DNA of 64,000 nt from Escherichia coli (GTDB taxonomy: Bacteria > Pseudomonadota > Gammaproteobacteria > Enterobacterales > Enterobacteriaceae), in the NCBI RefSeq assembly GCF_030384885.1, contig NZ_CP128613.1; one strand, given 5' to 3'. Made by a program: the position numbers and the translations under genes. The notes under the pieces were generated by a model that was not told the origin of the DNA, searched no databases, and saw nothing but the letters and a program-made list of their open reading frames with translations. Below, piece by piece: positions 56,633 to 64,000 of the stretch; position 1 is the first letter of the stretch; every line of letters begins with the position of its first letter.

Positions 56633-57862
56633 TCAGGGCCAACGTTTTATGATGATGGATGTATTAATGCCGCCAAAGGCAAAGTTGTTACTCTGCAAAA
56701 ACTCACAATCAATCTTGCGCGCTTCATGCATGATGTAATCCAGCTCGCCACAGTTAGGGTCTGGTTTATTCAGGTTTAGCGTAGGCGCAAACCAGCCTTC
56801 TCGCATCATTTGCAGACTCATCCAGGCTTCGAGCGCGCCACAGGCACCAAGCGTATGACCAAAATAACTTTTCAGCGAGGAGAGCGGCACATTATCACCG
56901 TAAATGGTTGCTGTCGCCAGACTTTCTGCCACATCACCACGATCGGTCGCCGTACCATGCGCCGAAATATAGCCGATATCACTTGCACTTAACCCGGCGA
57001 TTTTTAACGATTTTTCCATACAATATTGCATGGTCTCACGCTGAGGCTGGGTAATATGTGCCGCGTCGCAGTTGGTGGCAAAGCCAACGATTTCACCGTA
57101 AATGGTCGCGCCGCGCGCTTTGGCGTGCTCCAGTTCTTCGAGAATCAGCGTGCCTGCGCCTTCGCCAATCACCAGCCCGTCGCGGTTTTCATCGAACGGT
57201 GAAGGGGTGGTTTTCGGCGCGTCATTATGCTGGCTGGTGGCGAAAAGCGTATCAAATACCGCCGCTTCTGAAGGGCATAACTCTTCGGCGCCACCAGCAA
57301 CCATCACCGTTTGATAACCGTGACGAATGGCTTCCCACGCATAACCGATCGCCTGGCTGCCGGAGGTACAGGCGCTGGAGGTTGGGATCACCCGTCCGCG
57401 CAGGCCAAAAAATAGCCCGGTATTAACGGCGGTGGTGTGCGGCATCATCTGCACATAGGTGGTGCCAGTGATGTTGTTCGTGTGCTTTTCCGTCAGCATG
57501 GTGGCGAACTCGCTCACCGGACCGGTACTGCCGGTCGATGAACCGTACGCAATGCCCGTTTCACCGCTGGTTAATATCGGATCGCCAATCAACCCTGCCT
57601 GCTCTAACGCCAGCTCGCTGGCTCGGGTCGACATTTGCGACACGCGGCCCATCGCACGGATACGCTTGCGGGTGTAGTGCTCCGGTAGTGTGAAATCATC
57701 AATCGGCGCGCCAAGCAGGGTGTGCAGACCATCGTAGACCTGCCACTCCGGCATTTTGCGTACTGCATTCTCATACGCCAGCAGGCGCGCGGAAACGTCC
57801 TGCCAGTTTTCACCAAAGGCAGTCACGCCGCCCATTCCTGTAATTACCACGCGACGTGTCAT
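56633..57862 (-). CDS. beta-ketoacyl-ACP synthase (FabB/FabF-like; apeR-position KS)
   Basis: 409-aa ORF; active-site Cys in SSACTSGS, His motifs in SAHGTATDRGD and FGHTLGACG. Confidence 0.85.
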   Translation of the reverse strand: MTRRVVITGMGGVTAFGENWQDVSARLLAYENAVRKMPEWQVYDGLHTLLGAPIDDFTLPEHYTRKRIRAMGRVSQMSTRASELALEQAGLIGDPILTSGETGIAYGSSTGSTGPVSEFATMLTEKHTNNITGTTYVQMMPHTTAVNTGLFFGLRGRVIPTSSACTSGSQAIGYAWEAIRHGYQTVMVAGGAEELCPSEAAVFDTLFATSQHNDAPKTTPSPFDENRDGLVIGEGAGTLILEELEHAKARGATIYGEIVGFATNCDAAHITQPQRETMQYCMEKSLKIAGLSASDIGYISAHGTATDRGDVAESLATATIYGDNVPLSSLKSYFGHTLGACGALEAWMSLQMMREGWFAPTLNLNKPDPNCGELDYIMHEARKIDCEFLQSNNFAFGGINTSIIIKRWP

Positions 57863-58590
57863 AACATCCCTCCGTTGATGGAAATAACCTGGCGGGTGAC
57901 GTAACCCGCAATATCAGACATTAAATAGCTGGCAAGCCCGGCAACTTCTTCCGCCTGGCCCATGCGTTTCATGGGGATCATCGACATTGCCTCTTTCAGA
58001 GCGCTCTCTTCCATTTCGATCATCCCGGTATCAATAAGCCCCGGCGCGATGCAGTTGACGGTGATTTTGCGCTTCGCGAGTTCGATAGCCAGTGCTTTTG
58101 TTGCGCCGATAATTCCGGCTTTGGCAGCGCTGTAGTTCACCTGGCCGCGATTGCCCATTACGCCGGAAACCGAGGACAGCGTGATGATGCGTCCACCCTG
58201 GCGTGCGCCGATCATCGGCATAATGCACGGCTGAATGACGTTGTAGAAACTGTCGAGGTTGGTGTGGATCACCGCATCCCAGTCGTCATCGCTTAAAGCC
58301 GGAAAAGCGGCATCGCGGGCGATCCCGGCGTTACTAACCACGCCGTACCAGGCACCGTGTTGCGCGATCTCGTGCTCCAGCACTTCCCGACACTGTTCGC
58401 GGTTTGCGACGTCGAAACTGAGCAAACGCCCGTTACCACCGTTGGCGACAATGGTATTCAGCGTTTCCTGAGCGCCTGTGGCGTCACGGTGATAGTGAAC
58501 GCCAATATTAAAGCCGTCTGCCGCCAGTTGGCAGGCGATGGCGCGACCAATGCCTTTGCTGGCACCAGTAACCAGAACTGAACGACTCAT
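57859..58590 (-). CDS. 3-oxoacyl-ACP reductase (SDR, FabG-like; apeQ-position)
   Basis: 243-aa ORF; Rossmann TGASKGIGRA, SDR catalytic YSAAK. Confidence 0.88.
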   Translation of the reverse strand: MSRSVLVTGASKGIGRAIACQLAADGFNIGVHYHRDATGAQETLNTIVANGGNGRLLSFDVANREQCREVLEHEIAQHGAWYGVVSNAGIARDAAFPALSDDDWDAVIHTNLDSFYNVIQPCIMPMIGARQGGRIITLSSVSGVMGNRGQVNYSAAKAGIIGATKALAIELAKRKITVNCIAPGLIDTGMIEMEESALKEAMSMIPMKRMGQAEEVAGLASYLMSDIAGYVTRQVISINGGML

Positions 58591-59054
58591 CAGGACGCTC
58601 CTTGTTGAAACAGGGTGGTAAGTTCTTCCGCGGTCGGCTGGAAGGTGTTAATGCGGCCCGTTGCCTCGCCGTCGTTGATGCTGCACTCAAAACTACCGAA
58701 GCGTTCATCTTGCATCAGCAGTTTGACGGTAATGGTCAGCGTCTGGCCTGCGGGCAGAATGCCAGCGGCGCAAAGCAATTCACGCGCGCCCAGTACCATC
58801 CCTAACTCAATACTGTTTTTGCCCTGCTGGTGGCGATGCCAGCCAGACCAGACGCCGACGGTTTGCGCCATCAGTTCAAGGGCAAACCAGCCAGGGAGAT
58901 TGCCGTCCGGGTCGAGAAACGGTGCCAGTACACCACTGGGCGAAACCGTCACGCGGCACACGGCGCTGTCATCGCTGACGCTCACCACTTCTTCCAGCAG
59001 CAACATGGGCGCATCGTGGGGCAGATAAGCGCCGGGTGATAAATAGTGGCTCAC
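58590..59054 (-). CDS. hotdog-fold 3-hydroxyacyl-ACP dehydratase (FabA/FabZ-like; apeP-position)
   Basis: 154-aa ORF, hotdog dehydratase-like, translationally coupled to neighbours. Confidence 0.75.
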   Translation of the reverse strand: MSHYLSPGAYLPHDAPMLLLEEVVSVSDDSAVCRVTVSPSGVLAPFLDPDGNLPGWFALELMAQTVGVWSGWHRHQQGKNSIELGMVLGARELLCAAGILPAGQTLTITVKLLMQDERFGSFECSINDGEATGRINTFQPTAEELTTLFQQGAS

Positions 59055-63118: not shown

Positions 63119-63692
63119 CGGTCAGTTGCGCTGGCGTCAGTTGATGTTGGGTAAGAGCGATATCGGTGCGATCGTCCTGTTTATCATTAAGCTGAATGCT
63201 CTCCAGATAGGTTTGCCCGGCGAGATCGATGGTATTGAAAATTTTATCCAGCGGCGTGGTGGTCGGCGTCAGGCGCAGCGTCCAGCGGCCTTCGCCTTTG
63301 TCAGCAAATTCGACGCGGAAGTTTTGTTCCAGCACTTTGCGATCGGCCTGGAACAGCGCGCGCAGCAGGTGGTTAAACTGGAACATCTGCGGGTTATTTT
63401 CTGCCGTGATGATTTGTGGCGGCTGACCGTTGATCACCTGCACCATGCGTTTATCGTCCAGCAATAGCTGCATGGGAAATGGTGAGGTTTGATCCCACAA
63501 TAACCCCTGGTCGCGGGCGATCAACATCTGGCCCTGAGATCGCAGCGGCTGCGGCAGATCTTTAATCGTCCGGGTTTGATCAAAATGGGCGCGGATCACC
63601 GGCTGTTCGGTAAAGCGTTGCTGAAGATCGTCCAGGGTCAGGGCGCTCACAAACGGGCTAATCAGCAGCGCCAGCAGCGGTAAAAATTTCAT
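63087..63692 (-). CDS. LolA-like outer-membrane lipoprotein carrier-fold protein (apeL-position)
   Basis: 201-aa ORF with signal peptide MKFLPLLALLISPFVSA. Confidence 0.75.
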   Translation of the reverse strand: MKFLPLLALLISPFVSALTLDDLQQRFTEQPVIRAHFDQTRTIKDLPQPLRSQGQMLIARDQGLLWDQTSPFPMQLLLDDKRMVQVINGQPPQIITAENNPQMFQFNHLLRALFQADRKVLEQNFRVEFADKGEGRWTLRLTPTTTPLDKIFNTIDLAGQTYLESIQLNDKQDDRTDIALTQHQLTPAQLTDDERQRFAAQ

Positions 63693-64000
63693 GGTTTGAC
63701 TCCCATGCGTTCAAACAGAATATCGGGGCTGACAAAGCACAGTTCGCGGCTTTGCTCGTCGACCGCGACCTGAATGGTGTATCCGGTGGTGGCGCGTTTG
63801 CCCGTTTCGGCATCGAAAATCTGATAGCCAATTCGCAGGCGGTTTTCGAACTCTTCGATATGCGCACGCACGCGGATGCGTTGCTCAAAGGTGAGGGCGT
63901 GGCGATATTTCACCCGCGCATCGACCACTGGCCACAAATAACCCGACTCTTTCATCTGCCGATAGCCGTAATTGAACTGGTTGAGCAGCGCCTCGCGGGC
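63689..64000 (-). CDS. hotdog-fold acyl-CoA/ACP thioesterase (4HBT-like; apeK-position), N-terminus beyond right edge
   Basis: Open minus-strand frame continues without stop to the window end; C-terminal 88+ residues 4HBT-like. Confidence 0.7.
   Translation of the reverse strand, partial: AREALLNQFNYGYRQMKESGYLWPVVDARVKYRHALTFEQRIRVRAHIEEFENRLRIGYQIFDAETGKRATTGYTIQVAVDEQSRELCFVSPDILFERMGVKP

Follow-up and report, generated by a model that had tools for sequence, protein, structure and literature searches.

The window analysed in our study, a stretch of 64,000 nucleotides of Escherichia coli DNA, closes with eight co-directional minus-strand genes that lie beside acpT. The features of this region are listed below in order of their coordinates, with identities to the corresponding proteins of strain CFT073.

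56044..56631, minus strand: acpT, 4'-phosphopantetheinyl transferase (NCBIfam equivalog NF007676 AcpT, 395 bits, cut-off 174)
56633..57862, minus strand: apeR, homodimer-type beta-ketoacyl-ACP synthase, 409 aa (98.3% aa identity to c1186)
57859..58590, minus strand: apeQ, NADPH-dependent SDR 3-ketoacyl-ACP reductase of the FabG2 type, 243 aa (98.8% identity to c1187)
58590..59054, minus strand: apeP, hotdog-fold 3-hydroxyacyl-ACP dehydratase subunit, 154 aa, GTG start (97.4% identity to c1188)
59051..60220, minus strand: apeO, elongating ketosynthase, 389 aa (99.0% identity to c1189)
60222..60806, minus strand: apeN, DUF3261 lipoprotein, 194 aa (Pfam DUF3261 3.4e-39; 96.4% identity to c1190)
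60803..63118, minus strand: apeM, RND/MMPL-type inner-membrane exporter, 771 aa (Pfam MMPL 3.3e-7; 96.6% identity to c1191)
63087..63692, minus strand: apeL, LolA-like periplasmic carrier with an N-terminal signal peptide, 201 aa (98.5% identity to c1192)
63689..64000, minus strand, cut by the window edge: apeK, hotdog 4HBT/YbgC-type thioesterase (NCBIfam YbgC/FadM family match)

The sequence-only reading had described a tightly packed block next to acpT that runs off the window edge, and the ORF coordinates and gaps confirm this description: from apeK down to acpT, neighbouring genes are separated by -4, -32, -4, +1, -4, -1, -4, and +1 nt, the 32-nt overlap being that of apeL and apeM. The RefSeq annotation of a near-identical genome, that of strain 2013C-4282, makes the same calls; for apeO, the ORF list extends to a GTG at 60229 and RefSeq takes the ATG at 60220. 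The eight ORFs are intact and have the lengths of their CFT073 counterparts, except for apeM, which is one codon shorter, and the truncated apeK, of which the window holds the C-terminal 103 of 140 codons. Consensus scans found 5 promoter-like sites inside the block (4.5 expected after shuffling) and 13 terminator-like sites (9.9 expected). Since these matches do not exceed the shuffled expectation, we rejected a division of the block by internal promoters or terminators, and its organization fits one polycistronic unit. The start of acpT is located 1 nt past the apeR stop codon, so that the transcription unit at this locus probably ends with acpT.

Comparison of the eight products with the CFT073 APE proteins, which had been proposed as a check, gave amino acid identities of 96.4-99.3% to ApeR, ApeQ, ApeP, ApeO, ApeN, ApeM, ApeL, and ApeK, which correspond to c1186-c1193, and the order apeK-L-M-N-O-P-Q-R, given in the sequence-only reading, agrees with Table 1 of Johnston et al. 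2021 (PMC8253772). The family assignments of these ORFs are far beyond chance. Their best matches among solved structures are ApeO, ApeP, ApeQ, and ApeR proteins, with scores two to four times those of FabF or FabG homologues, and the PDB identities of the ApeO, ApeR, and ApeQ entries are confirmed in PMC8358021 and PMC8041823. For ApeR, the matches are 4EWG (PpApeR, 555 bits) and 7F27 (AbApeR, 533 bits), with E. coli FabF at about 252 bits; the protein scores 779 bits with NCBIfam PRK09116, and its motif residues Cys165/His302/His336 are present. By analogy with the role in initiation attributed to ApeR in Grammbitter 2019, as reported by a paper citing that work, it would be the initiation ketosynthase of the aryl polyene pathway. 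ApeO matches chain A of 6QSP (Xenorhabdus doucetiae ApeO, 586 bits) and 7F28 (AbApeO, 280 bits), with FabF at about 131 bits; it scores 559 bits with NCBIfam PRK09185, possesses Cys156/His281/His315, and, by analogy, is predicted to work in a heterodimer whose other subunit, the chain-length factor ApeC, is encoded outside the window. ApeQ matches 4IIU, which is the CFT073 protein itself (514 bits), and 7CAW (AbApeQ, 318 bits), with E. coli FabG 1I01 at 165 bits; it exceeds the cut-off of the FabG2 model TIGR01831 (475 bits, cut-off 339) and contains both the TGASKGIG and YSAAK motifs. The sole PDB match of ApeP, named 'ApeP family dehydratase' by RefSeq in the near-identical genome, is chain B of 6QSR (166 bits), an entry that we take to be the ApeI:ApeP complex of Grammbitter 2019 and whose two chains match ApeI and ApeP here. 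The partner of ApeP would thus be ApeI, also encoded outside the window, whose homologue matches 6QSR chain A.

The remaining four genes encode the transport components and the thioesterase. ApeM, in addition to its Pfam match, shows weak NCBIfam matches to HAE3 and HpnN, and its hydropathy profile consists of TM1, a loop of ~225 aa, a TM cluster, a second loop of ~180 aa, and a further TM cluster. ApeL matches Pfam LolA (7e-11) and LolA_3 (4e-10), and scores 58 bits with TIGR00547 lolA, under its cut-off of 112. ApeN carries an L-T-G-C lipobox at residues 18-21 and is proposed, by analogy, to be a LolB-like outer-membrane acceptor for the aryl polyene lipid. The full-length ApeK of the near-identical genome matches PDB 6FDG, a 4-hydroxybenzoyl-CoA thioesterase, with 68 bits, and is 99.3% identical to c1193. 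Even in the model systems, the functions given to ApeK, ApeL, ApeM, and ApeN have the status of proposals.

Because the window ends inside apeK, the upstream half of the cluster was deduced from a close relative of the source strain. We used the genome of strain 2013C-4282 as a proxy for the sequence past position 64000, since only 2 of the last 8001 nt are mismatched (99.98% identity); elsewhere in the window this genome differs by recombination tracts, its differences being clustered at 30-36 kb and at 44-50 kb, and the register is shifted before about 12.3 kb. In it, the segment from position 64000 to yhhT contains apeJ, apeI, apeH, apeG, two ACP genes (apeF and apeE), and then apeD, apeC, apeB, and apeA, with no pseudogene flags on apeA-apeJ in the RefSeq annotation and none in O157 either. 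Both ACPs have an LDSID phosphopantetheine site and pass the ACP models above their cut-off, an AMP-binding protein is present, and the ApeI and ApeC homologues match 6QSR_A (134 bits) and 6QSP_B (311 bits). The expectation that ACP, adenylation, acyltransferase, and ammonia-lyase genes would follow past the window edge was thus borne out in its greater part, with two ACPs, the AMP-binding enzyme, and acyltransferases at 0.1-8 kb, but not for the ammonia-lyase, for which the annotation of the near-identical genome shows no gene between yhhT and acpT. Such a gene is not expected because the 4-hydroxybenzoate starter comes from UbiC.

The APE core set used by Grammbitter et al. and antiSMASH includes the ketosynthases apeO and apeR, the ACPs apeE/F, the chain-length factor apeC, the dehydratases apeI and apeP, the ketoreductase apeQ, and the transporter apeM. 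The window itself encodes both the ApeO-type and the ApeR-type ketosynthase, the FabG2-type ApeQ, the dehydratase subunit ApeP, and the RND/MMPL transporter ApeM together with LolA-like ApeL and DUF3261 ApeN; ApeI was found only in the near-identical genome, where ApeC, the ACPs ApeE/F, and the aryl-acid adenylating ApeH also lie, 2-6 kb past the window. We conclude, with high confidence, that positions 56633-64000 are the promoter-distal half (apeK-apeR) of the 18-gene E. coli APE cluster at the yhhT-acpT locus, which is deleted in K-12-like strains. This is an already described cluster in a known position, and antiSMASH had previously identified APE clusters in ST11/O157 (PMC9205054); the annotation of the eight genes is correct and clean but ordinary, and it leaves current understanding unchanged.

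APE lipids are outer-membrane pigments of Gram-negative bacteria that protect against oxidative stress and promote biofilm formation, and few bacterial gene clusters are more widespread than theirs. The chemistry, transport route, and expression in the source strain can be proposed from the orthologous systems of CFT073, Xenorhabdus, and Acinetobacter. AcpT, which is active on the O157:H7 homologues of ApeE/F (De Lay & Cronan 2006, as cited in PMC8253772), may by analogy activate both cluster ACPs, the ApeE and ApeF homologues. It would make ApeE holo, after which ApeH, encoded upstream, would load 4-hydroxybenzoate onto this ACP and ApeR would perform the first condensation. Repeated rounds of condensation by ApeO with the chain-length factor ApeC, ketoreduction by ApeQ, and dehydration by the ApeP:ApeI pair would follow, and the lack of enoyl reduction in these rounds would give a conjugated polyene. 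The thioesterase ApeK may release or proofread the acyl-ACP, and the acyltransferases ApeD and ApeJ would attach the chromophore to its lipid anchor; ApeM would then export the lipid out of the inner membrane, and LolA-like ApeL and the lipoprotein ApeN would carry it to the outer membrane, where the pigment could provide oxidative-stress protection and favour biofilm formation. Heterologous expression of the CFT073 cluster yields a cell-bound aryl polyene pigment, and its deletions have been phenotyped (PMC8253772).

The acpT-apeR junction is found in 569 of 5426 complete E. coli genomes (about 10%), O157:H7 included, and about 85% of E. coli genomes are without any APE copy. In K-12, as the sequence-only reading had stated, acpT stands without the cluster: yhhT is followed by 54 bp and then acpT, and the last five apeR codons remain, which to judge from the sequence are a deletion scar. 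A mildly new observation, which concerns genes outside the window, is that apeA and the apeG-H-I block of the acpT-linked lineage have diverged from those of CFT073. The identities are 65% for ApeH, 72% for ApeI, 81% for ApeG, and 64% for ApeA; the apeG-H-I block, of about 2 kb, shows about 64% nucleotide identity to CFT073, with flanks at 92-99%. The apeH allele type follows chromosomal location, with 566 genomes of the acpT-linked type versus 259; the 566 compare with the 569 that have the acpT-apeR junction. Published E. coli APE experiments concern the island-borne CFT073 copy, whereas the acpT-linked copy is commoner, differs in its starter-loading region, and has a PPTase gene attached, a point worth carrying forward.

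The divergence of ApeG, ApeH, ApeI, and ApeA means that the exact product need not be identical to that of CFT073, and two related readings start from it. According to one, which we consider unlikely, E. coli has two APE lineages, between which the apeG-H-I cassette has been swapped and apeA is of a different type. One would be an ancestral chromosomal copy to which acpT is translationally coupled as a nineteenth gene, found here and in O157:H7 but lost by K-12-like strains, all of which share one deletion endpoint; the other would be the island-borne copy of CFT073 and Nissle 1917. The acpT-linked lineage could then load another aryl starter or build another polyene lipid than APE(Ec). The narrower proposal that the cluster is of the APE type but makes a product unlike APE(Ec), with another aryl head group or chain length owing to the replaced cassette and the different apeA, appears improbable to us. 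It draws on the sharp drop in identity over the 2-kb block, on the ApeH and ApeI values, and on the way the allele type tracks chromosomal location; however, architecture and gene lengths are unchanged, and the methyltransferase, chain-length factor, ketosynthases, ketoreductase, and ApeP are 94-99% identical. Moreover, X. doucetiae ApeH is far more distant and yet uses 4-hydroxybenzoate, 65% identity is compatible with unchanged specificity, and the eight window genes are unaffected.

We consider it very improbable that the cluster is a silent or decaying relic from which nothing is made in the source strain, even though most E. coli genomes have no copy, K-12-type strains have deleted the acpT-linked one, and APE clusters, which have no regulator of their own, are weakly expressed or often silent in laboratory culture, native induction in CFT073 being modest. 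The eight ORFs are intact and have their catalytic motifs, pseudogene flags are absent from the close relative and from O157, and purifying selection is indicated by the identity of the proteins (96-99%), which exceeds that of the nucleotides (90-99% per 300-nt window). As for a set of housekeeping fabF/fabG/fabZ paralogues next to an unrelated transporter, or a flexirubin, xanthomonadin, or dialkylresorcinol cluster, we regard the chance as negligible. The ketosynthases, ketoreductase, and dehydratase do belong to the FabF, FabG, and FabZ superfamilies, and there are sub-threshold FlxB and LolA2_flexi matches, but the cut-offs of the specific PRK09116, PRK09185, and FabG2 models are exceeded by a wide margin. 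A best match to housekeeping enzymes had been named as the outcome that would overturn the APE assignment; instead, these proteins match Ape proteins and not FabF, FabG, or FabZ. Housekeeping fatty acid synthesis was rejected on the PDB score ratios and on the scores of FabF TIGR03150 (352, for ApeR, and 209; cut-off 494), FabG TIGR01830 (263, cut-off 298), and FabZ TIGR01750 (just 26, for ApeP; cut-off 155). The flexirubin type was rejected on FlxB (266, cut-off 340), LolA2_flexi (54.5, cut-off 125), the FlxJ-family methyltransferase (474, cut-off 560), and the absence of a lyase gene, and the dialkylresorcinol type because the full yhhT-acpT locus of the near-identical genome has no DarA/DarB genes.

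The closest characterized system is the APE(Ec) cluster of CFT073, apeA-apeR = c1204-c1186 (Cimermancic 2014; Johnston 2021, PMC8253772), whose 18 genes are the same, follow one another in the same order, and hardly differ in length. Its nucleotide identity to the acpT-linked cluster is 90.7% over 14.9 kb. The CFT073 copy resides in an integrase-flanked island near pgaA/dgcT without an adjoining PPTase gene, whereas the cluster described here is located between yhhT and acpT. The O157:H7 island, which we take to be O-island 138 with Z4853 and Z4854 as its ACPs, has the same apeG-H-I and apeA alleles, with 95.5% nucleotide identity over 16.1 kb and 93-99.6% amino acid identity per protein. Its difference is at the strain level only; the apeH of the window lineage is an outlier, about 94% identical to most other acpT-linked copies, and between yhhJ and nikR O157 carries an additional block with hicAB and PTS genes. 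The O157:H7 island next to acpT that, according to the sequence-only reading, was reported to encode the cognate carriers of AcpT is at this same locus, with yhhT, 18 genes, acpT, and nikA in that order; De Lay & Cronan 2006, as cited in PMC8253772, described the link between this fatty-acid-synthase-like island and AcpT.

In more distant organisms, the ape cluster of X. doucetiae shares gene set and nomenclature (Grammbitter 2019; preprint 10.1101/2020.12.19.423268), and its 6QSP/6QSR proteins match ApeO, ApeC, ApeP, and ApeI with E-values of 3e-38 to 4e-175; the genus is another one, however, and sequence identity is much lower. The complete APE lipid product is known only for Xenorhabdus and for no E. 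coli cluster. The Acinetobacter baumannii proteins ApeO-ApeC (7F28), ApeR (7F27), and ApeQ (7CAW) are clear homologues (280, 533, and 318 bits), although they are more distant orthologues from a differently arranged cluster. Finally, type II fatty acid synthesis (FabF/FabB, FabG, FabZ) and the Lol pathway (LolA, LolB) share the same folds, catalytic triads, and a comparable carrier/acceptor logic, but the APE cluster uses an aryl-acid starter and a dedicated RND/MMPL transporter rather than LolCDE, and, since it has no enoyl reductase, the double bonds would be kept, unlike in type II fatty acid synthesis.

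The block that adjoins acpT at the right edge of the window consists of eight minus-strand reading frames, all of which run in the same direction from acpT to the window edge in the ORF list for 54-64 kb. They are given here with acpT and with the amino acid identity of each product to its counterpart in the aryl polyene (APE) cluster of E. coli CFT073:

56044-56631, minus strand: acpT, PPTase gene
56633-57862, minus strand: apeR, ketosynthase, 409 aa; 98.3%
57859-58590, minus strand: apeQ, SDR reductase, 243 aa; 98.8%
58590-59054, minus strand: apeP, hotdog dehydratase, 154 aa, GTG start; 97.4%
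59051-60220, minus strand: apeO, second ketosynthase, 389 aa from the RefSeq ATG (GTG at 60229 in the ORF list); 99.0%
60222-60806, minus strand: apeN, DUF3261 protein, 194 aa; 96.4%
60803-63118, minus strand: apeM, MMPL protein, 771 aa; 96.6%
63087-63692, minus strand: apeL, LolA-like protein, 201 aa; 98.5%
63689 to the window end, minus strand: apeK, thioesterase, 103 of its 140 codons inside the window; 99.3%

The distances between neighbors, from apeR to apeK, are -4, -1, -4, +1, -4, -32, and -4 nt, and the family assignments of all eight products in NCBIfam and Pfam are unambiguous. The ORF list, the spacings, and these assignments agree with the order, strand, and close packing described in the sequence-only reading, and the observation of the eight-gene block is confirmed. 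The G+C content across the block is 53-62%, similar to that of its flanks, and promoter and terminator consensus matches within it show no excess over the shuffled expectation.

The CFT073 cluster, apeA-R, corresponds to c1204-c1186 (Johnston et al. 2021, Table 1, PMC8253772), and the same table bears out the order apeK-R given in the sequence-only reading. We fetched the CFT073 region and aligned all 18 protein pairs between the acpT-linked cluster and CFT073. In this comparison, which had been proposed earlier, all eight window products match ApeK-ApeR with 96.4-99.3% amino acid identity; consequently, the window genes are near-identical orthologues of the genes of a pigment cluster. The CFT073 cluster produces a yellow aryl polyene pigment upon heterologous expression, and its deletions have been phenotyped (PMC8253772). 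The reading of the block as the distal half of an APE cluster is supported, and the feature is the already known E. coli APE cluster adjoining acpT.

It was also considered that the ketosynthase, ketoreductase, and dehydratase genes could be housekeeping fatty acid synthesis genes, with best matches to fabF, fabG, and fabZ; when this was examined, they matched Ape proteins instead. ApeO scored 586 bits against 6QSP_A (X. doucetiae ApeO) versus about 131 bits against E. coli FabF, and ApeR reached 555 bits with the ApeR structure 4EWG and 533 bits with 7F27, versus about 252 bits with FabF. Similarly, ApeQ scored 514 bits against 4IIU (the CFT073 protein) and 318 bits against AbApeQ versus 165 bits against E. 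coli FabG, and the sole PDB match of ApeP was 6QSR_B; for the ApeO, ApeR, and ApeQ structures, the identities of the entries are confirmed by previous reports (PMC8358021, PMC8041823). The models PRK09116, PRK09185, and FabG2 were passed easily, and the curated FabF, FabG, and FabZ models stayed below their cut-offs. The housekeeping assignment is rejected on these scores.

To the right of position 64000, the APE cluster can be followed in a close relative. In a megablast search of 5,426 complete E. coli genomes, the best and sole near-perfect match of 56000-64000 was strain 2013C-4282, which differs by 2 mismatches over 8,001 nt. From the thioesterase onward, its annotated order is a GT2 glycosyl/acyltransferase, an "ApeI family dehydratase", an AMP-binding protein, a 193-aa hypothetical protein, two carrier proteins, a lysophospholipid acyltransferase, a "beta-ketoacyl synthase chain length factor", a methyltransferase, and a small lipoprotein, followed by yhhT; the annotation holds 18 genes in total, which is the apeA-R architecture. 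Judging from this relative, the operon probably runs on beyond 64000 in the window strain. The partner chains are also matched (ApeI to 6QSR_A and ApeC to 6QSP_B), and both ACPs carry an LDSID phosphopantetheine site. The ACPs, adenylation enzyme, and acyltransferases predicted to lie there are therefore all found in 2013C-4282. The ammonia-lyase gene, also expected, is absent from the cluster, the sole real error of the sequence-only reading; since the 4-hydroxybenzoate starter is supplied by UbiC (PMC8253772), such an enzyme is not needed.

Elsewhere, mismatches between the window and 2013C-4282 are concentrated at 44.0-44.5 kb (a DUF4049 paralogue), 45-50 kb (yhiI-rbbA), and 30-36 kb (the prlC-dtpB region), and over 1-12,300 the two sequences are out of register owing to an indel near 12.3 kb (gadW/mdtF region); these differences resemble tracts exchanged by recombination among close relatives. 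The annotation of this strain also places two tandem DUF4049 genes (~535 and ~540 aa) between yhiM and yhiI at ~41,800-45,300, a frameshifted hypothetical gene adjoining slp at ~22,476-23,592, and an ArsR-family regulator and permease pair upstream of arsRBC.

Based on orthology, a pathway can be proposed in which AcpT would convert the ACPs ApeE and ApeF to their holo forms, and ApeH would adenylate 4-hydroxybenzoate and load it onto ACP. ApeR would carry out initiation and ApeO with ApeC elongation; in model systems, these steps from ACP activation to elongation have been demonstrated. Both ketosynthases of the window keep the Cys-His-His triad. Reduction by ApeQ, which keeps the TGxxxGxG and YxxxK motifs, and dehydration by ApeP:ApeI, with no enoyl reduction, would yield a conjugated polyene. 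ApeK, a 4HBT-type thioesterase, may act in release or proofreading; its deletion in a model system only lowered pigment. ApeD and ApeJ would acylate the product onto a lipid anchor, ApeM would then export it, and onward transport to the outer membrane is proposed for ApeL and ApeN. Sequence features of the three proteins support this last step: the RND topology of ApeM (TM1, followed by a large loop and two TM bundles with a second loop between them), the LolA-likeness of ApeL, which has a signal peptide, and the LTGC lipobox of the DUF3261 protein ApeN. In culture, expression of APE clusters is weak or absent.

The apeR-acpT junction reads TGA-T-ATG (window 56631-56635), so that acpT starts 1 nt past the apeR stop, with no obvious Shine-Dalgarno sequence. 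This arrangement suggests translational coupling; at this locus, acpT would be the nineteenth operon gene and the last cistron to be translated.

In K-12 MG1655, as previously noted for K-12, acpT stands without the cluster, separated from yhhT by just 54 bp. This spacer (6916-6969 of the K-12 locus, L005) retains in alignment the last five apeR codons and the stop (IKRWP*, window 56632-56651) directly upstream of acpT, and in every K-12-type genome of a spread sample the match to a probe for the acpT-apeR junction stops at window 56651. The remnant and the common breakpoint indicate that the K-12 state is a deletion derivative, in line with both the title and the conclusion of De Lay & Cronan 2006 (cited in PMC8253772). 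They also point to one shared deletion having removed the cluster from K-12-type genomes. Of the 5,426 genomes, 822 hold 80% or more of 56000-64000, and 569 have the acpT-apeR junction.

Two lineages of the cluster can be distinguished, acpT-linked (window, O157) and island-borne (CFT073, Nissle). They diverge in two places. A block of ~2 kb that takes in apeI, apeH, and a portion of apeG shows ~64% nucleotide identity between them (ApeI 72%, ApeH 65%, and ApeG 81% amino acid identity to CFT073), and the second place is the apeA end (ApeA 64%); the flanking regions are 92-99% identical. In the 2013C-4282 locus (L001), the diverged parts are:

25,700-27,900 (~65.7-67.9 kb in window-equivalent positions, past the edge): apeI-apeH-apeG block
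31,000-31,650: apeA end

The apeH allele follows chromosomal location (566 genomes of the window type, 259 of the CFT073/Nissle type). This divergence lies outside the window and leaves its eight genes unaffected; it is the only element with possible novelty, as the diverged apeG-H-I and apeA might specify a different starter or product.

With respect to known systems, the island reported next to acpT in O157:H7 proved to be the same 18-gene cluster at the same locus, with 95.5% nucleotide identity over 16.1 kb, and an APE cluster in ST11/O157 had already been reported by an antiSMASH-based pangenome paper (PMC9205054). The O157:H7 locus (strain TB21-1, L004 4,791-11,081) also has an extra block between yhhJ and nikR, in which a hicAB toxin-antitoxin pair is joined by genes for PTS, kinase, aldolase, and a GntR regulator; this hicAB/PTS block is missing from the window lineage (~50.6 kb). 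In contrast to the window cluster, the CFT073 copy occupies another chromosomal locus, an island where it stands without an adjoining PPTase gene.
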